The notes below the pieces were generated by a model, which searched no databases, was not told the DNA's origin, and was given only the letters and a program-made list of their open reading frames with translations. Shown in pieces: positions 18,435-26,909 of a stretch of DNA of 64,000 nucleotides. The position numbers were made by a program, and so were the translations under genes. The stretch is from Armatimonadota bacterium (GTDB lineage Bacteria > Armatimonadota > UBA5829 > DTLH01), in contig JBDKUN010000009.1 of assembly GCA_039679675.1 (NCBI GenBank), positions 22,863-86,862 of the forward strand, written 5' to 3'. Each line of letters starts with the position of its first letter. The stretch's first letter is position 1.

Positions 18435-19634
18435 CTAATCTGATGGGTCGAACACCTTGTTCAGCGCGAGGAAACCAGCGCCGAGGACGGCTGCATCTTC
18501 ATTTAGTACACTTGGCTCCAGTTTTATCTGCCCCGGCCAGTATTCATACTTCGCCACAGCTTCATGGAGTGAGTTCCAGAAGACATCGCCGGATTTCGAG
18601 ACGCCTCCACTAATTGCAAAGAAGGTAATTCCGAACAGGTTCGTTATATTGACTATTGCGAGTCCAAGATAGTTGGTTGCACAGGCAAATATATCGAGTG
18701 CAAGCTTATCACCTTTCTTTGCTGCTTCCGCCACATCCTTAGCCGTTATGTTCGCGGTAGAAAGTTCAGTAAGCAGGCTCTTTGTACCGGACTCTATGGC
18801 TCTCCTTGCGGCTGCGGCTATACCTTGTCCTGACGCTATCGATTCCAGATACGACCTGCCCCCGAATCTGTCCGGGTCGCCTTCCGGCCCGACTATCATC
18901 ATACCGAACTGGGATATGGCCGCAAGCGGATAAAGCTCCCGGTTTATGACAAAGCTGCCGCCCACGCCGACTCCGATGGCTATGTAGGCAAAACTGTCGT
19001 TCGTTCTCCCATGCCCAAGTTTGGCCTCGGCAAGTGTTGATGAGATTATGTTGTCATAAACTGTAGCCGGGATATTGCACACCTGCCGCGCTATTCTAGC
19101 TATTGGGAAGTTGTTCAGATCAAGGTTGAAACTGAGCTTGACGATACCGAGGTTCGAGTCGACCATTCCGGTGCAGCTGATGCCCATCGCGAGCGGTTTG
19201 CCACGCTTAGGTTCACATTCCTTTAGGAGCCGGTTCATCGTAGATACAATGGCCTGCGCGACTGGCTCCTCTCCACGAACATTATCCAGCGACTGCTCAA
19301 CTGACTCATGTAGGTTTCCGGCGAGGTCCATAGCTGCAGCTTTTATGTGGCTCCCGCCGATCTCCAGCGCAAGAACCCAACATCCGCCTGGCTCTATGTC
19401 CAGAAGCACGGTCCTTCGCTTGGCATTCCCGGTCTTCACGAAGCCGGCCTCCGTCAGGATAGACTCACTCATCAGCTCATCTACAATTCGGCAAACCGTA
19501 GGAAATGATAGCTTGGTCAGCTCGGAGATTTCTTTCCGGCTCATCCGGCCATGAGTTCTCAACGCAGACAGAACCGTCCTGCTATTCTCTTTTTTTAGGA
19601 CCAGATAATTGAAATTCTTTTTAGCTGTTCGCAT
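18435..19634 (-). CDS. ROK family transcriptional repressor
   Basis: N-terminal HTH (MSRKEISELTKLSFPTV), ROK fold, LESIASG. Divergent from a glycosidase-like gene. Confidence 0.9.
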   Translation of the reverse strand: MRTAKKNFNYLVLKKENSRTVLSALRTHGRMSRKEISELTKLSFPTVCRIVDELMSESILTEAGFVKTGNAKRRTVLLDIEPGGCWVLALEIGGSHIKAAAMDLAGNLHESVEQSLDNVRGEEPVAQAIVSTMNRLLKECEPKRGKPLAMGISCTGMVDSNLGIVKLSFNLDLNNFPIARIARQVCNIPATVYDNIISSTLAEAKLGHGRTNDSFAYIAIGVGVGGSFVINRELYPLAAISQFGMMIVGPEGDPDRFGGRSYLESIASGQGIAAAARRAIESGTKSLLTELSTANITAKDVAEAAKKGDKLALDIFACATNYLGLAIVNITNLFGITFFAISGGVSKSGDVFWNSLHEAVAKYEYWPGQIKLEPSVLNEDAAVLGAGFLALNKVFDPSD

Positions 19635-19847: not shown

Positions 19848-22409
19848 GTGGTAATTCGCTCACGTCATTTATATAGGACTATCCTGTTTTTATTCTTGGT
19901 TGTAATAATGGAGGTAATACCATCAATGTCGATGTCGAAGCAGGCTGGCGATGCATCCGCGAAGCTTACGATGAGTTCAAACAGCATTCTCATCAATGAG
20001 CAGGGCTGGGTACTTCCGGTCTCGCTCACATGCCCGGAGTTCGTTTTTGAAGGTAAAACAGTGGGAGTGGGGATAACTCCTGCCGACATTAGGGGAGATA
20101 TTGCACGTAAGCTCGTTACAGCATCTTTTTCTCCAATCGATCTTGATAGCTCAGCAAAACTGGAAGTAAAGCTCCATGTTGAGTGGTCCAAAAAGGAACA
20201 GATTTTACGCAAATGGGCCGAATACAGGATCACTGGAACAGATAGGCCTCTTCTTCTTAAAGAAATAGTGCTCGAACGGCTGGAGACTCCCGGGCAAACG
20301 GCTACAGTTACCATGAAACCTGGGCAGTTCCAGAGCTACCCTGTCTTTGTGCAAGCCTTCTACACCGGAATAGAGTTTCCGGTTGCTGCTGTTCGGTCGG
20401 AAAACGGCAGATTACTCCTTGCGCATCGCCCCGGCATCTACATTCAACCGAACAAATGGTATGAGAGCAAAAAAGCGATATTCGGAGCGGCTCCGGTAGG
20501 TCAGGAAAAACAGAATTTCAAGAACTATATAGCTGCCCACCGCACCAACCCTAAAGGATTCCACATCGACTACAACAGTTGGTGGACAACGAAAGTCCCC
20601 TATTCGGAGGAAGAGATTCTGGACCTGATGCATACATTCAAAGTAAAGATGTTCGAGCCCTGCAAGGAGTGCTTCGACTCTTTCTGCATAGACATGGGCT
20701 GGTCTGAGCCAAAATCCTTCTGGGACATTAACACGAAGCTGTTTCCTGATAAGTTCACCCCGATTATGAAAAAAGCGAAGGAGATGAAGTCGAATCTTGG
20801 CCTATGGATTTCCCCCAGCAATGCCTATACACCGAGCTCGATGGACAACGAGTGGGCGAAGGATAACGGATATGAAACCTTCCCAGTGGATTGGCACGCA
20901 GGCAGGCTGTGCTGCCTGGGCGGAAATAAGTATCAGACAGGATTCAGAGACAGACTTGTTGAGATGGTCACCAAATACGGCATCCGGCAGATAAAGTTCG
21001 ACGGCTATAACGGCCAGTGCCAGGAATCGAACCATGGTCATGCACCTGGTGAATACTCTGCTGAGGCTGTAGCAGAGGGTTTGATCAAATCTTTCGTCGC
21101 AATTCGTCAGGCTGCACCGGACACATGGATGGAAACGACCTGCATGACTTGGAACCCGAGCCCGTGGTGGCTTTTCTATGTGGATTCCGTCATCGGAACA
21201 TACGGCGACGATTCACCTGCAGGCCGAATACCGTGTCCGGTCTACCGGGAGAGCTACACAACAGCAAGAGACTATTACAACCTTCAAGGCGCGGCACTCC
21301 TGCCGATACCGGTAGTCGCACAAGAAGTGCTTGGGATTATTCACCAGACCCCGGAACCGTTTATGGACGACGCTGTGACCACTATTATGCGCGGGCACAT
21401 GTTCCTTCCGGTCTATCTCAATCCGTTATATATGACCGATGCGCGCTGGAAGACTTTTGCAGAGATCCTGACCTGGGCCAGAAAAAATGAGAGTGTCCTG
21501 GAAGAGACTCAGCCGATACTTCCTGATTCATGGCAAAACGGCGCCGTTCCTGAGTTCGAGGAAAACGCAGAAATGCCGCGTGAACCATACGGTTATGCAC
21601 ATTTCAAAGGGAATAGCGGCCTTGTAGAGCTCAGAAACCCCTGGATTACCGGATGCAACTATCTGCTCAAGCTGGACGAAAAGCTCGGACTTGCTTCGGA
21701 TGCAAAAGGGCTTACTGTAGTGAGCCTGTACCCGGAAATCCGCGTTTACGGGCAGAATTTGAGCCCTGGGCAGTCTCTGGATGTTCCGCTTGCTCCCTAT
21801 GAGACCGTGGTGCTCTCCGTAGCTCCGAATCAGCTAGTTAAGGGCATTCCATCCGCAGTCGATGCGCTTAAAGGATGCGGAAAAGTGGAGATCAAGCAGG
21901 TAGAGAAGACCCGCGTAGAGTTTTTGGATGCCAAAGACTACCTTCCAGGAGGTGCGAAGACGGCTGTTAAGCTGAATTTGGGGGCAAATGTGGAAGTTAC
22001 CGCACCGAGTGCCGAGCTTCTGGTCCTTGTAGAAGGAGAAACCCCGGCTGTCACGCCTATCGGCTCTATTGAAGTGAACGGTGTCGAGAAGAAACCCATG
22101 GTCACTGGTTCCGCAACCGGCTGGACAGCAACACAGCTTCCCCCGCACGGACATTGGACATTCCTTTCTGTGCCACTCGAAAAGGGAGAGAATACTATAG
22201 CACTCGATCTCTATGCAGGTATCGGCGTGTACAAGATGTCCGCATGGGTCTGGGCCAAAAAGCCAGGTCTGACGAATGTGCCAAACTACAAGAACGCGCT
22301 TCCTGAGCCGGAGCAGATTTCGCTCCAGTCGGTGGCGCTTGTAGAGCCATTCGATCTCAATTCTGTGACTGTGCCGGTTGCTAAAGAAGATTACCCGCTT
22401 CACAGATAA
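19848..22409 (+). CDS. Secreted alpha-galactosidase-like (GH36-clan) protein
   Basis: YNSWW, FCIDMGW, GLWISP and IKFDG TIM-barrel motifs. Confidence 0.65.
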   Translation: MVIRSRHLYRTILFLFLVVIMEVIPSMSMSKQAGDASAKLTMSSNSILINEQGWVLPVSLTCPEFVFEGKTVGVGITPADIRGDIARKLVTASFSPIDLDSSAKLEVKLHVEWSKKEQILRKWAEYRITGTDRPLLLKEIVLERLETPGQTATVTMKPGQFQSYPVFVQAFYTGIEFPVAAVRSENGRLLLAHRPGIYIQPNKWYESKKAIFGAAPVGQEKQNFKNYIAAHRTNPKGFHIDYNSWWTTKVPYSEEEILDLMHTFKVKMFEPCKECFDSFCIDMGWSEPKSFWDINTKLFPDKFTPIMKKAKEMKSNLGLWISPSNAYTPSSMDNEWAKDNGYETFPVDWHAGRLCCLGGNKYQTGFRDRLVEMVTKYGIRQIKFDGYNGQCQESNHGHAPGEYSAEAVAEGLIKSFVAIRQAAPDTWMETTCMTWNPSPWWLFYVDSVIGTYGDDSPAGRIPCPVYRESYTTARDYYNLQGAALLPIPVVAQEVLGIIHQTPEPFMDDAVTTIMRGHMFLPVYLNPLYMTDARWKTFAEILTWARKNESVLEETQPILPDSWQNGAVPEFEENAEMPREPYGYAHFKGNSGLVELRNPWITGCNYLLKLDEKLGLASDAKGLTVVSLYPEIRVYGQNLSPGQSLDVPLAPYETVVLSVAPNQLVKGIPSAVDALKGCGKVEIKQVEKTRVEFLDAKDYLPGGAKTAVKLNLGANVEVTAPSAELLVLVEGETPAVTPIGSIEVNGVEKKPMVTGSATGWTATQLPPHGHWTFLSVPLEKGENTIALDLYAGIGVYKMSAWVWAKKPGLTNVPNYKNALPEPEQISLQSVALVEPFDLNSVTVPVAKEDYPLHR

Positions 22410-22607
22410 AATGCAGCTTGGACGATTGCAAGAAATCAAATGTTACCAGGCTCGACTATTGCTTACACAGCTTCATCGATAATGTAATGCTTGCAGAACA
22501 ACATACCAAGTAAAGTGGATTATTATTCAAAGCCTATTGACATATTAGAAGGAGCTGAGCGATAATAGGTTGCTTCTTTTTCTCCTTTCACTACCTCAAT
22601 GGAGGGG

Positions 22608-22642
22608 GCTTGGCTGAACGCCCAACAGCCAAGCTATTTTTT
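22608..22642 (+). terminator. Rho-independent terminator
   Basis: GCTTGGCTG-loop-CAGCCAAGC followed by TATTTTTT. Confidence 0.7.
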
Positions 22643-22761
22643 GGAGGAGGCAGCTGCTGTTGGCTGCTCCGAACCCTCTGACGCCTCTTAAACGTAAGAA
22701 AAATGCCTCATTAATCGCTCAAAATATATCGTAATCACTAAGACAAAAGCGATTAACATTC

Positions 22762-22790
22762 TTGACATCTGTGTGTCTGGATGCTAGTAT
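22762..22790 (+). promoter_or_regulatory. Sigma70 promoter for the ncRNA-RT transcript
   Basis: TTGACA (22762-67), 17 bp spacer, TAGTAT (22785-90) with extended -10 TG. Confidence 0.8.
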
Positions 22791-22796
22791 TAATAT

Positions 22797-23110
22797 GCTC
22801 TTCCGTTAAGCGCGAAGAGGTATGGCGTTCACTTTGTCAACCACCCACTGAACAGCTGCATTAAGCTGAACAGTGACCGTGATATGGCACACTGCCTGAA
22901 GAACAGTGGCAACCACAGTCGCTGTCCAGGTAAGCACGAACTGTACGTCATAGTCATTATAGCTCGGAATGTTTCCTTGCGGGCTTCTGGTCTTTCAGAA
23001 GGACAATGTCTCACGCTAACAGCATGGGCGTTGAGTGTGCGCGGGGGGAGGATGCAGTCGGATACCGCAAGTCCGCTTCCCCTCGCTTTGCTTTTAACCT
23101 ATAGCGAGGA
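22797..23110 (+). ncRNA. DRT2-associated ncRNA (template ~22827-22970 plus 3' scaffold)
   Basis: Lies between a strong promoter and a DRT2-like RT. Many hairpins (CTCTTC/GAAGAG; CACTG-aa-CAGCT/AGCTG-aa-CAGTG; CTTCTG/CAGAAG; GCGGGGGGA/TCCCCTCGC). Contains antisense -35 (TGTCAA 22835-40) and -10 (ATTATA 22956-61). Confidence 0.85.
22827..22970 (-). other. neo: Cryptic Neo-like repeat unit (144 nt, 48 codons), complete only in concatemeric cDNA
   Basis: Stop-free frame IPSYNDYDVQFVLTWTATVVATVLQAVCHITVTVQLNAAVQWVVDKVN. The head-to-tail junction rebuilds TTGACA-aagtgaacattccgagc-TATAAT. Confidence 0.75.
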
Positions 23111-23112
23111 CC

Positions 23113-24372
23113 ATGTGTAGTATGGAAACACCGCAGTGGTATAAGAATCGCGAGTACCCACATTTCGATAAACCCCTATCAATAGCAGCAGCCATTAAGC
23201 TTGTAGAAAATAAGCAAGAGGTTGAAAAGCACGCTTTCCTCCCTTTTATAAAGTGGCAGATAACTGAACGTAGATATAAGCGCAAGTTACACAGAACTGG
23301 ATTAAAGTGTCGCAGTATTGCTTGCGCTGCACATACAGACTCTCACATATTTGCCTATTATGCATCTTTATTGAATGCCTTGTATGAAGAAAAATTAGCT
23401 ACTCTGGATATTGGCGATTGTGTTCTAGCCTACAGGCGCTTTGGAGGTAAATGCAATATTCACTTTGCACAAGAAGCATTTGAGCACATAAAGAGCTTAA
23501 AATCTTGTCGTGTCATGGCGCTTGATGTAAAGGGGTTTTTTGATAATATTGATCATCTATTGCTAAAGAAAGCATGGTGCCAATTGCTCGGCGTTAGTCG
23601 ATTACCGAAAGATCATTATGTTGTTTATAAAGCGATGACCCGTTATGCTTATGTGAATAAAGACGCACTATACAAGGAATTTGAGATTGGACGTCGACGT
23701 GCAGCTAAACTGAAGGGTTCCATATGTTCACCTCTTGAATTTAGAACAAAGGTCAGAGCTGGAAACCTGATTAACGTTCATACTGATACTTATGGGATTC
23801 CACAAGGATCACCTATCAGCGCCGTCTTATCAAACTTGTATCTTTTGTCTTTTGATATTGCACTGTCTGACAAAGTCAAAGAGTGTGGCGGCTTGTATAG
23901 ACGCTACAGCGATGACATTCTCGTTGTATGTCCCCTCTTCAAGGACTGCTGTTTAGATTTTATCAAAGAACACCTGCATAAACTGAAACTCGACCTTAGT
24001 GAAGACAAAACTACCATCACAAATCTAGGTAAAGATGAGAGCGTTACAAAAAACACTAGTATACAATACCTTGGATTGGAATTGATAAATGGTCAAATTC
24101 TCATTCGTCATAAAGCTATTGCCAGATATCAGCGGAGAATGAAAGAATCTGTTCGTTCAACAATTAGAGCAGCAAATAAAGCCAAAAGAAAGGGGTCAAC
24201 CGGGGAGGCATATAAGCGCAAACTATACGAACGCTTTACTCATCTTAGTAAAAACAGCAGTTATCCTCAATATATCAAGCGGGCCTCTAGGATAACGAGT
24301 TCAGAAGCCATTACGAAGCAGCATCGAAATCATTGGCAGCAGTTACACGACTTACTTAAGCATAGACGCTAA
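23113..24372 (+). CDS. drt2: Antiviral reverse transcriptase, DRT type 2 (UG2)
   Basis: N-terminus WYKNREYPHFDKP...HAFLPFI, AAHTDSHIFAYY, KCNIHFA, LDVKGFFDNIDH, LPKDHYVVYK, GIPQGSPISAVLSNLYL, YRRYSDD, QYLG. This matches my recollection of DRT2 RTs along the full ~420 aa. AT-richer than its neighbours. Confidence 0.9.
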   Translation: MCSMETPQWYKNREYPHFDKPLSIAAAIKLVENKQEVEKHAFLPFIKWQITERRYKRKLHRTGLKCRSIACAAHTDSHIFAYYASLLNALYEEKLATLDIGDCVLAYRRFGGKCNIHFAQEAFEHIKSLKSCRVMALDVKGFFDNIDHLLLKKAWCQLLGVSRLPKDHYVVYKAMTRYAYVNKDALYKEFEIGRRRAAKLKGSICSPLEFRTKVRAGNLINVHTDTYGIPQGSPISAVLSNLYLLSFDIALSDKVKECGGLYRRYSDDILVVCPLFKDCCLDFIKEHLHKLKLDLSEDKTTITNLGKDESVTKNTSIQYLGLELINGQILIRHKAIARYQRRMKESVRSTIRAANKAKRKGSTGEAYKRKLYERFTHLSKNSSYPQYIKRASRITSSEAITKQHRNHWQQLHDLLKHRR

Positions 24373-24514
24373 CAGCCTGTCATTTATAATTGTAGCTAGA
24401 CACACTATTTAGAAATTCCTCTATGATCTCCAAGCATCGATAATACCCAATCTTTATGATTGCTACAAATTGTTGATTTGGCTTGCTCAATATGGTAAAC
24501 TAAAAAGGTTTGCA

Positions 24515-24600
24515 TCACGCACCGCATCCGGATCGGCTGCCGGGGTGCCTCTAAGAGGTCGGCGCCGGGGTGATGGAGCGGGAGGTAATAACTAACAAGG
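24515..24600 (+). ncRNA. rpsB 5' leader (t44/S2 autoregulatory RNA)
   Basis: CAC...CCGGGGTGCCTCTAAGAGGTCGG...GGAGGTAATAAC closely resembles the E. coli rpsB leader. Extended -10 TGGTAAACT upstream. Confidence 0.75.
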
Positions 24601-24613
24601 AGGAAATCAAAAC

Positions 24614-25429
24614 TTGGCATCGATCACAATGAAAGAACTGCTGGAGGCAGGGGTACACTTCGGCCACCAGACCCGCAGATGGAACCCTAAGATGAAAAGG
24701 TACATCTACGGAGGCCGGAACGGTATCTACATCATCGACCTGCATCAGACACTCAAGCTCTTTGAAGAGGCCCGGCAGTTCGTGCAGGACGTAGTCGCCG
24801 AAGGAGAAGTCGTTCTCTTCGTAGGGACAAAGAAACAGGCTCAGGACGCCGTCCAGGAAGCAGCAAAGCGCTGCGGTATGTATTATGTCGACCAGAGATG
24901 GCTCGGCGGCATGCTCACAAACTTCCGCACAATCCAGACCAGAATAGCCCGCTTGAACGAGCTCAAAAAGATGGCGGAGGACGGAGTATTCGAGCAGTTG
25001 CCCAAGAAGGAAGCAGCCCTTCTCCGTGAGGAGTCGGACAGGCTGGAGCGGTTCCTCGGCGGTATCAAGGATATGCCCAAGCTCCCCGGCGCTATGTTCA
25101 TCGTCGACCTGAAGAAGGAGCGCATAGCTCTTGCTGAGGCCAGAAAGCTCGACATTCCTGTTGTAGCCATCGTAGACACAAACTGCGACCCGGACGAAGT
25201 AGATTACGTAATTCCCGGCAATGATGACGCTATCCGCGCCATCAAGCTGATCTCGAATAAGATCGCCGACGCTATCCTTGAAGTCCGGCAGGTAGAGACT
25301 GAGGGCGAAGAGGTAGAGGCTGAGGCCGAGGGCGCTGAAGCTGAAGCGGAAAAACCTGAGGCAGAGGCTGAAGGCGAGACTTCGGAAGAGGCCGCAGCAT
25401 TCCTGAGCGAAGCTCCAGAAGCCGAATAA
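24614..25429 (+). CDS. rpsB: 30S ribosomal protein S2
   Basis: [22 protein letters not shown]; PGNDDAIRA. Confidence 0.99.
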
Positions 25430-25471
25430 GCCGGTACCCGGTCAACTCGACCGGCCTTAATAGTAGATTTA

Positions 25472-25502
25472 GTTTGCGCAGGGCACAAAGCCCTGCGCAA
25501 AC
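25472..25502. repeat. Strong hairpin between rpsB and tsf (attenuator/REP-like)
   Basis: GTTTGCGCAGGGC-acaaa-GCCCTGCGCAAAC. Confidence 0.6.
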
Positions 25503-25573
25503 CTGTACGTAGTGCGTTTGCACACCGGAAAATTTTAGTGTTTTGAATATAAGATTTTAACAGGAGGCATCAA

Positions 25574-26173
25574 GTGGCAATAACGGCCAATATGGTCAAA
25601 GAATTAAGGGAAAAAACCGGCGCCGGAATGATGGACTGCAAAAAGGCGCTCGAAGAGACCGGCGGCGATTTCGATAAAGCGGCAAATCTGCTCAGACAAA
25701 AGGGTATCGCAGTAGCCGCAAAGCGTGAGACCAAGGCAGCGACCGAAGGGACCATCGGTGCGTACGTCCACACCGGCGGAAAGATCGGCGTGCTTGTGGA
25801 GCTGGGATGCGAGACCGACTTCGTTGCGAAGACTGATGAGTTTCAGGTGCTTGCCAGAGACCTTGCCATGCAGATAGCCTGGGGGAACCCCAAGTATATC
25901 AAACGCGAGGAAGTTCCTGCAGATCAGGTCGAGCAGGAGAGGGAAGTCCACAAGCAGTGGGCCATCAAGGAAGGCAAGCCGGAAAAAGCGCTCGACAGTA
26001 TCGTTGCCGGACGTATGGAGAAGTTCTACGAGGACATAGTACTGCTTGACCAGCCGTTTATCCGCGATTCGGACGTCAAGATCAATGATCTGATCAACGA
26101 CACGATGGGCAGACTGGGCGAGAAGATCGTCGTGCAGAGGTTCGTGAGATATCGAGTAGGAGAGCAGGGGTAG
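25574..26173 (+). CDS. tsf: Elongation factor Ts (short form)
   Basis: [19 protein letters not shown]; CETDFVA. Confidence 0.98.
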
Positions 26174-26180
26174 TCGTAGC

Positions 26181-26909
26181 ATGCAGGACAAGCCGCGTTG
26201 GAACCGGGTACTCCTGAAGCTTTCGGGCCAGGTGTTCGCGGGCAAGGATAGTGTCGGTATATGCTACGATACGATTGCGTCTATCGCAGAGGATGTTAAA
26301 GAACTAAAGGACAGCGGCGTCGACATGGCCATTGTCATAGGCGGAGGAAATATCATCCGCGGACAGGCGGCGTCGCGCGCCGGGATGGACCGTGCAAGCG
26401 CCGACTACATGGGTATGCTTGCAACAGTCATAAACTGCCTCGCCCTGCAGGATGCGCTGGAGAAACTTGGGATCGAGACACGCGTGCAGTCCGCGATAAC
26501 TATGTCCGAAGTCGCTGAACCGTTTATCAGGCGGCGGGCCATAAGGCACCTTGAAAAAGGCCGCGTGGTCATATTCGCTGCCGGAACGGGCAACCCGTAT
26601 TTTACGACCGACTCTGCCGCGGCGCTTCGAGCGCTCGAAATCAAGGCTCAGGCGGTCTTGAAGGCAACGAATGTCGATGGAATATATGACCGCGACCCGC
26701 ACAAAGACGCGGATGCGGTAATGCTTACCCATATCGACTACATGGACGCCATCAACCAGGGCCTGGGCATTATGGACCTTACGGCCTTTACGCTTTGTAT
26801 GGACAACAAAATGCCGATCGTGGTATTTAACATAACCCAGCGCGGCAACATCAAGCGAGCCGTGTGGGGTGAACAGATAGGAACGCTTGTTGGGGGGAAG
26901 AACGAGTGA
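26181..26909 (+). CDS. pyrH: UMP kinase
   Basis: [24 protein letters not shown]. Confidence 0.98.

Follow-up and report, generated by a model that had tools for sequence, protein, structure and literature searches.

The question raised by this stretch of DNA, a 64,000-nucleotide (nt) segment of an Armatimonadota contig (JBDKUN010000009.1, positions 22,863 to 86,862; hereafter the window), is whether the noncoding RNA (ncRNA) encoded upstream of its reverse transcriptase (RT) gene conceals a second gene, one that comes into being only when the RNA is copied into tandem repeats. Such a gene has been described in the DRT2 anti-phage system of Klebsiella pneumoniae, where it encodes the protein Neo. 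According to the two papers on that system, the DRT2 ncRNA lies upstream of the RT, with the template between a 5' handle and a 3' scaffold; a TATAAT and a TTGACA hexamer stand in permuted order and gain a 17-bp spacer upon concatenation; unit length is a multiple of 3, at 120 nt in Klebsiella and, among 42 close homologues, at 117, 111 or 129 nt; and a single stop-free frame antisense to the ncRNA yields a toxic hydrophobic repeat protein (PMC11100668, PMC12039810). A sequence-only reading of the window had proposed that a Neo homolog lies here, unseen by linear gene calling. As far as sequence comparison can tell, this proposal is borne out: a Drt2 RT, matches to two ncRNA covariance models (R1 and R2) and agreement with a rule common to the family all point to it. 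By analogy with Klebsiella, we consider the locus to be a Neo-type anti-phage DRT2 retroelement, with a probability of roughly 0.8.

The RT (Table 1) is a full-length, intact member of the Drt2 family, judging by its matches to family models and to a solved structure. PADLOC assigns it to Drt2 (E = 1.2e-146), the DRT9, DRT10 and retron families scoring far weaker, and it scores 480.6 bits against the NCBIfam Drt2 equivalog NF041746 (cut-off 390). Residues 8 to 411 of its 419 align with the Klebsiella Drt2 (PDB model 9c0i; E = 6.6e-91; identity moderate, about 40%, estimated by eye from the alignment), and its YSDD motif aligns with the YCDD of that solved enzyme. A Pfam scan of the protein returned RVT_1 only, with no extra domain. 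It is the sole Drt2 in the 3.14-Mb genome, and in a comparison with 5.8 billion proteins its closest relative shares 51% identity with it, the next ones 43 to 47%. A search of five other genomes of the same family found no DRT2 relative, and among 52 other genomes of the same class there was one (locus L176, 38% identity).

A homologous DRT2 ncRNA lies directly upstream of the RT on the same strand, as indicated by two covariance models from which the window locus was excluded. Model R2, built from 20 homologues and spanning the 5' handle to the UGUCAA motif, has covariation at 8 of its 8 base pairs and finds a single match in the 64-kb window, at 22789-22840 on the plus strand (24.6 bits, E = 0.012). 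It also matches eight other DRT2 loci with similar scores, always on the RT strand, and upstream of the RT start in all five of those whose start is mapped. Model R1, built from 14 homologues, describes a tower hairpin with its tail, of which 12 of 15 base pairs covary; searched against both strands of the window, it returns a single weak match, coincident with the 3' scaffold (14.1 bits, E = 0.076). Scaffold motifs recognized by eye are UUGCGG, GAGUGUGC, the CCGCA loop and UUUGCU. A candidate promoter matching the consensus at 10 of 12 positions implies that the ncRNA starts near 22797, 30 nt 5' of the template; in the Klebsiella ncRNA the template begins at nt 29 (PMC12039810). In a permissive Rfam search of 22300-24700, the ncRNA matched no family; the one hit, to t44 and below threshold, lies upstream of rpsB. 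When whole 3' scaffolds were aligned with MAFFT, the result was too poor for model building and was set aside, and two loci (L107 and L128) that were misaligned in a later alignment were removed from it.

The permuted promoter lies within this ncRNA. On the minus strand, a perfect -10 hexamer precedes a perfect -35 hexamer with their starts 121 nt apart, and concatenation of a 144-nt unit would place TTGACA and TATAAT 17 bp from each other. These positions, this offset and the resulting spacing had all been claimed beforehand and were recovered in full, as were two trinucleotide repeats on the plus strand whose copies lie exactly 144 nt apart, GTT (Table 1) and CTT (22832-34/22976-78). The sequence-only reading had also named a unit not divisible by 3 as grounds for doubt; 144 is divisible, at the 17-bp spacing. 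When the reverse complement of 22827-22970 was tandemly repeated in silico and all frames were read, the codon frame of TAT AAT was the only antisense frame free of stops with the GTT junction, running through 48 codons; the ATG-containing frame is closed by a TGA where the units join, and the third antisense frame has five stops in each unit. If the CTT repeats form the junction, the ATG-containing frame becomes open in addition to the TAT-AAT frame. The TAT-AAT frame itself is open at 18 of the 18 junction placements that a 144-nt unit allows.

Conservation of the pair and of the frame among homologues, whose absence had been named in advance as evidence against a hidden gene, was surveyed across the family. 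From metagenome and viral contigs, 93 DRT2-like loci were gathered with an alignment query; a query with the single RT against genome contigs had returned mostly distant non-DRT2 RTs (best 32%) and was replaced. The survey took in the 81 loci with a mapped RT start and at least 300 nt upstream, and called a permuted pair where the hexamers had at most one mismatch and the -10 lay 90 to 200 nt from the RT start. Such a pair was present in 35 of the 81 loci, with a unit divisible by 3 at 17-bp spacing in 27 of the 35 and the TAT-AAT frame open in 22. The sense-strand control gave 12 pairs (5 divisible by 3) and the reversed control 5 pairs (1 divisible by 3); with near-duplicates collapsed, 22 of 28 groups had a unit divisible by 3. 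In a first pass, the TAT-AAT frame was open in 21 of 24 loci, with units of 114 to 159 nt (38 to 53 amino acids [aa]). Five Klebsiella-like loci (L163, L165-L168) have a 117-nt unit, a TGT junction and a ribosome-binding site with ATG; they serve as a positive control, because these recovered features match the published ones. The window locus obeys the family rule, with a perfect pair, a 144-nt unit and the same frame open, and its -10 lies 151 nt from the RT start; among loci that combine a well-matched pair with divisibility of the unit by 3, this distance is mostly 97 to 168 nt. The description of its 48-aa unit as longer holds in relation to the 40 aa of Klebsiella, but not in relation to the family, within whose 114 to 159 nt a unit of 144 nt is unexceptional. 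In three loci (L114, L160, L171), the frame that is open stands in another register to the -10, and many divergent DRT2 loci have no recognizable permuted promoter.

Hexamers, spacing and open frame could in principle have come together by chance in an ordinary RT leader, with no hidden gene at all. Perfect permuted pairs are not rare: the whole genome (3.14 Mb, or 6.27 Mb of strand sequence) holds 58 that would give a 17-bp spacer with a unit of 90 to 200 nt. Units divisible by 3 number 20 of these, matching the chance prediction, and the TAT-AAT frame is also open in 7 of the 20, the DRT2 locus included. Openness of the frame alone is weak evidence, because 154 of 2,000 shuffles of the 144-nt unit (7.7%) have a stop-free frame and because the ncRNA-sense strand has one too. 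Among 10,000 single-strand stretches of 370 nt, however, only about 4 would be expected to combine pair, divisibility by 3 and open frame, and here the combination occurs at the position, on the strand and in the frame conserved in the family, adjoining a Drt2 RT. Coincidence is therefore scarcely credible.

Given a hidden gene, it matters which repeat carries the jump from one unit to the next. We favor the GTT junction over the CTT junction by about three to one, on the grounds of positional homology, the placement of the two CUU copies and the RT clade. In L084, L095, L170 and L121, the handle is followed after 5 nt by CGUUC (L084) or CGUUG (the other three) and, after a further 4 nt, by UGUCAA; on the other side, an AUUAUA-type hexamer is followed after 8 nt by the same CGUU motif, so that the microhomology is 4 to 5 nt. 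L176, which comes from the same order as the window, carries CGUUC and UGUUC at the matching positions, a 6-nt repeat. The window locus has CGUUC on one side and UGUUU on the other, with GUU as the shared core, and because the layout around handle, UGUCAA and AUUAUA is the same, its GUU repeat occupies the repeat position of these five relatives. The template boundaries given here were set by the GUU repeats together with that positional homology. AUUAUA and the conserved GCGG stand 23 nt apart in the window locus, L168 and L084. In a quick tree of 89 RTs, which left out open reading frames (ORFs) below 330 aa (e.g., L095), the duplicate L175 and L176, the window RT pairs with L082 in a clade with L084, L170, L121 and L107/L128. 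This AAC(G)-type clade (SH-aLRT [Shimodaira-Hasegawa-like approximate likelihood ratio test] support of 85) is sister to the clade of TGT-type loci. Junction type tracks the RT tree among loci L082 to L174, which include at least two types: TGT (ACA in the RNA) and AAC(G) (CGUU in the RNA).

An alternative is that the mechanism is the same but that the jump uses the CUU repeats, in which case the product would be the endless ATG-containing frame, starting at ATG 22957 or 22951. The CTT microhomology is genuine, two frames are open with this junction, the second of them contains the ATG codons that the TAT-AAT frame lacks, and an AAGGAA resembling a Shine-Dalgarno (SD) sequence is retained. However, the second CUU copy lies 1 nt before the conserved GCGG, whereas the repeat of ACA-type and CGUU-type relatives ends 4 to 5 nt before it, and the first copy abuts the -35, whereas the longest repeat begins 2 to 9 nt after the -35 in most relatives. 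The frame that the family keeps open is the TAT-AAT frame, in the 21 of 24 loci noted above; the +1 frame, which holds the ATGs here, is open in only 3 of the 24, and its translations in 10 relatives run into stops at scattered places. Furthermore, one ATG directly adjoins the -10 and the other follows it by 4 nt, so that both precede the point where transcription would normally begin, and the AAGGAA is 14 to 20 nt away from them. A jump via CUU is therefore very unlikely. That the CTT junction opens an ATG-containing frame, as had been pointed out, is correct in silico, but the junction is disfavored by positional homology, and with the GTT junction this second frame drops out. The ATG frame was also considered as a finite peptide of 43 to 44 aa per unit and was rejected, having no counterpart in 10 relatives.

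With the GTT junction, and by analogy with Klebsiella, the RT would copy the 144-nt template into complementary DNA (cDNA), whose 3' end, an AAC templated by GUU-1, would re-anneal at GUU-2 so that the template is copied again into head-to-tail 144-nt repeats. After second-strand synthesis, every junction would bring TTGACA and TATAAT to 17-bp spacing, and a transcript antisense to the ncRNA would carry the stop-free 48-codon frame, in which TAT AAT reads Tyr-Asn. This frame would encode a repetitive, hydrophobic protein whose effect is to arrest the infected cell.

Several observations weigh against a Neo-type locus. The literal ACA of the Klebsiella clade is absent at both template boundaries, the microhomology at the junction is just 3 nt, and other 3-nt repeats at offsets of 143 to 145 can be found by eye. 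The ncRNA-sense (plus) strand of 22827-22970 also has a stop-free frame across the junction, so the earlier claim of a single open frame at the GTT junction is right for the antisense strand but not for both strands; the sense frame probably arises as a side effect of coding on the antisense strand. Several homologues likewise have an open ncRNA-sense frame. The E values of R1 and R2 are modest and only roughly calibrated, although their matches fall where the ends of the ncRNA are expected. Minimum free energy folds of 22700-23115 and 22797-23097 contain no stem closing the template, and the closing stem found by eye has seven pairs, three of them G-U. Finally, the 48-codon unit has no in-frame ATG in the TAT-AAT frame; a GTG at offset 24 has no SD sequence (-0.4 kcal/mol); and a better-placed GTG, discussed below, is equalled together with its SD-like match in 110 of 1,000 shuffles and is not significant alone.

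In its start signals, the window locus differs from most of its relatives. An in-frame ATG stands 12 to 42 nt after the -10 start in 19 of 20 other loci with an open frame, and in the 14 loci for which SD energies were calculated, the best-supported ATG reaches -5 to -13 kcal/mol, L148, with no ATG, being the exception. In the window unit, the only in-frame start with an SD-like match is the GTG codon just before the junction AAC (22832-22830; -7.9 kcal/mol, or -11.0 kcal/mol with a longer anti-SD; generic anti-SD strings were used because a search of the genome yielded no 16S 3' end). Our best guess is that translation would start at this GTG, within the spacer of the rebuilt promoter. L176 has a comparable arrangement: there is no ATG after its -10, but an in-frame ATG with an SD of -14.0 kcal/mol stands at the position equivalent to the GTG, in a 132-nt unit with the same frame open and a template that looks intact. 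The RT gene there (L176:1075-2640; G029, a genome of the same order) is broken across three reading frames, which reflects either decay or an assembly error.

A further possibility is that concatemeric cDNA is or was made but that its coding function has decayed or is unused, leaving no Neo-type protein and a locus that is inactive or acts through nucleic acid. The want of an ATG or SD after the -10, set against 19 of 20 comparable loci, would fit such decay, as would a candidate GTG that is not significant alone, an RT that forms an isolated branch (nearest homologue 51% identical) and a system found in none of five family genomes and in 1 of 52 other class genomes. The RT is nonetheless intact, both hexamers are perfect and the 48-codon frame is open in the frame used by the family, and L176, which also has no ATG after the -10, combines a strong SD and an ATG at the end of its unit with an open frame. 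This arrangement in L176 suggests a lineage variant rather than decay, and we consider loss of the coding function unlikely. A lineage-specific placement of the start in the window locus and L176 is plausible on present comparisons. More tentatively, and with considerable doubt, the two may represent a DRT2 variant that joins GUU-type jump repeats to a start codon and SD at the end of the unit, in the spacer.

As for the product that the Neo-type frame would specify, the 48-aa unit is hydrophobic, as had been stated (grand average of hydropathy 0.67), with 8% charged residues, values within the range of the other units. The description of the unit as plausibly helical is not upheld. It is the richest of 21 units in the beta-branched and aromatic residues V, I, Y, F, W and T (52%) and, together with L148, the poorest in helix formers (27%); for these reasons we do not call it helical. 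Pfam gave no match for the unit translation or for two small genomic ORFs.

Evidence of junctions was sought in the assembled contigs of four runs over 22500-23500 (1,001 nt). In the two DNA runs that are the probable source of the genome (X1 and X2), the region is colinear. An RNA library from the same study (X3) yielded one 159-nt contig identical to 22810-22967 and nothing else in the region; it covers 141 of the 144 template bases and 17 nt of 5' flank and is colinear with the genome, its strand being undefined by the contig. One unmatched letter stands at its 22968 end. Contigs of the fourth run (X4) touch only 22500-22676. The contigs of the four runs showed no joints and no loose ends, although contigs cannot show rare junctions.

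When the window locus is set beside the Klebsiella DRT2/Neo system, the similarities extend from a single Drt2-family RT matching 9c0i over its full length to an ncRNA that lies upstream in the same orientation and combines a 5' handle hairpin with template and 3' scaffold, and to permuted hexamers with a 17-bp spacer, a unit divisible by 3 and a hydrophobic stop-free antisense frame. The differences are a unit of 144 nt (48 codons) against 120 nt, a flanking GUU in place of ACA, the lack of both the ribosome-binding site and the ATG that Klebsiella has downstream of the -10, and a host that by its uS2 protein is probably Bacillota-like instead of gammaproteobacterial. Closer in layout are L082, L084, L095, L170, L121 and L176, which share the order of handle, CGUU-type repeat, UGUCAA and AUUAUA plus 8 nt as well as the open frame, and of which L082, L084, L170 and L121 belong to the same RT clade. 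These CGUU loci have repeats of 4 to 6 nt and units of 114 to 132 nt, compared with 3 nt and 144 nt in the window locus, and all except L176 have a GGAG-type SD and an ATG 18 to 30 nt after the -10 start, which the window locus lacks. Other defensive RTs also pair an RT with a cognate ncRNA template and make defensive cDNA. DRT9 is described as making homopolymers and DRT10 short tandem repeats, both protein-primed, and retrons make a single branched multicopy single-stranded DNA (msDNA); unlike DRT2, none of them rebuilds a promoter and an ORF. Both DRT2 papers liken Neo to the junction promoters of circular transposon and insertion sequence intermediates (PMC11100668, PMC12039810), in which the -35 and -10 similarly meet only upon end joining; the joining there is by circularization of DNA, whereas in DRT2 it is by template jumping of the RT on RNA.

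The surroundings of the locus do not form a defense island, since its neighbors are rpsB with its leader downstream of the RT and, on the other side, a ROK-family regulator and an 853-aa protein. The latter lies beside alpha-galactosidase-like clusters in the ESM Atlas (score 0.98; Melibiase on 30 to 52% of members). In a genome of the same genus, counterparts of the two flanks, 22397-22680 and 24466-26500, stand at the ends of contigs and no sequence separates them, an arrangement that fits a 1.8-kb insertion, short of proof. In that genome, about 105 nt apparently replaces the 4-kb stretch with the ROK regulator and the 853-aa ORF. The t44 match (24500-24592, plus strand, directly upstream of rpsB) reaches 29.6 bits against a gathering threshold of 44 (E = 0.0012) and is probably an rpsB leader; the genome itself is not enterobacterial in appearance. 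The uS2 protein of the window is closest to PDB ribosomes that we take to be those of Bacillus, Listeria and Staphylococcus (340 to 357 bits), and scores about 260 bits against what is presumably that of E. coli. The distant phylum suggested by the sequence-only reading is plausible. Upstream of the DRT2 module, a promoter-like TTGACA, 18 nt and GATAAT (22537-22566, plus strand) precedes a short element, reaching to 22690, in which a strong hairpin and a U-run stand out. Three other genera of the family each have one site with 83 to 84% identity to positions 22571-22641. In the genome itself, the element 22537-22690 is single-copy; it is not a tRNA and has no Rfam match; it may be a small RNA or leader, directly after which the DRT2 module begins.

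Table 1. Features of the DRT2 locus and its neighbors in the window
Feature	Position	Strand	Remarks
ROK-family regulator	18435-19634	-	adjoins 853-aa ORF
853-aa ORF	19848-22409	+	no Pfam, PADLOC or NCBIfam match
Candidate ncRNA promoter	22762-22790	+	TTGACA, 17-nt spacer, TAGTAT with TG extension
Predicted DRT2 ncRNA, about 300 nt	22797-23097	+	5' handle, template, 3' scaffold; both ends predicted; models R2, R1
5' handle hairpin	22798-22819	+	6-bp stem CUCUUC/GAAGAG; model R2
Predicted template region	22827-22970	+	144 nt; reverse complement is the predicted 48-codon cDNA repeat unit
GUU-1	22827-22829	+	within CGUUC; 5 nt after handle, 4 nt before UGUCAA
Candidate start GTG	22830-22832	-	codon just before junction AAC; only in-frame start with SD-like match
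-35 hexamer TTGACA	22835-22840	-	perfect; genomically downstream of the -10
Putative SD-like GTGGGTGG	22841-22848	-	upstream of candidate GTG
-10 hexamer TATAAT	22956-22961	-	perfect; promoter forms only upon concatenation
GUU-2, putative re-priming site	22971-22973	+	analogue of ACA-2; within UGUUU, 8 nt after AUUAUA, before UUGCGG
3' scaffold tower hairpin	23034-23097	+	CCGCA loop, UUUGCU tail; model R1
Drt2 reverse transcriptase	23113-24372	+	419 aa, YSDD active site; PADLOC, NCBIfam and PDB matches

The principle is already published and the published picture is unchanged; the interest lies in the details of this locus. Tang et al. describe DRT2 as broadly conserved, with Neo harder to annotate in divergent clades, and report ACA to be conserved in homologues related to the Klebsiella system (PMC11100668). 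A 2026 preprint counts 13,034 DRT2 loci in IMG and takes the hidden ORF as established (10.64898/2026.09.22.753630), and a limited literature search found no later paper on DRT2 diversity. Against this background, the window offers a DRT2 hidden gene that would be readable from raw sequence in a divergent RT lineage, in a probably Bacillota-like genome from a wastewater metagenome, and it adds a unit of 48 codons to the predicted Neo units. It also draws attention to a group of DRT2 loci whose predicted template jump would use CGUU or GUU instead of ACA, two of which have none of the usual start signals after the -10. If the start of translation does lie at the end of the unit, both the promoter and the continuity of start codon and ORF would arise only after concatenation, and a transcript would have to extend into a second unit before translation could begin. 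Annotation rules that require ACA, or an ATG after the -10, are too narrow for the family.

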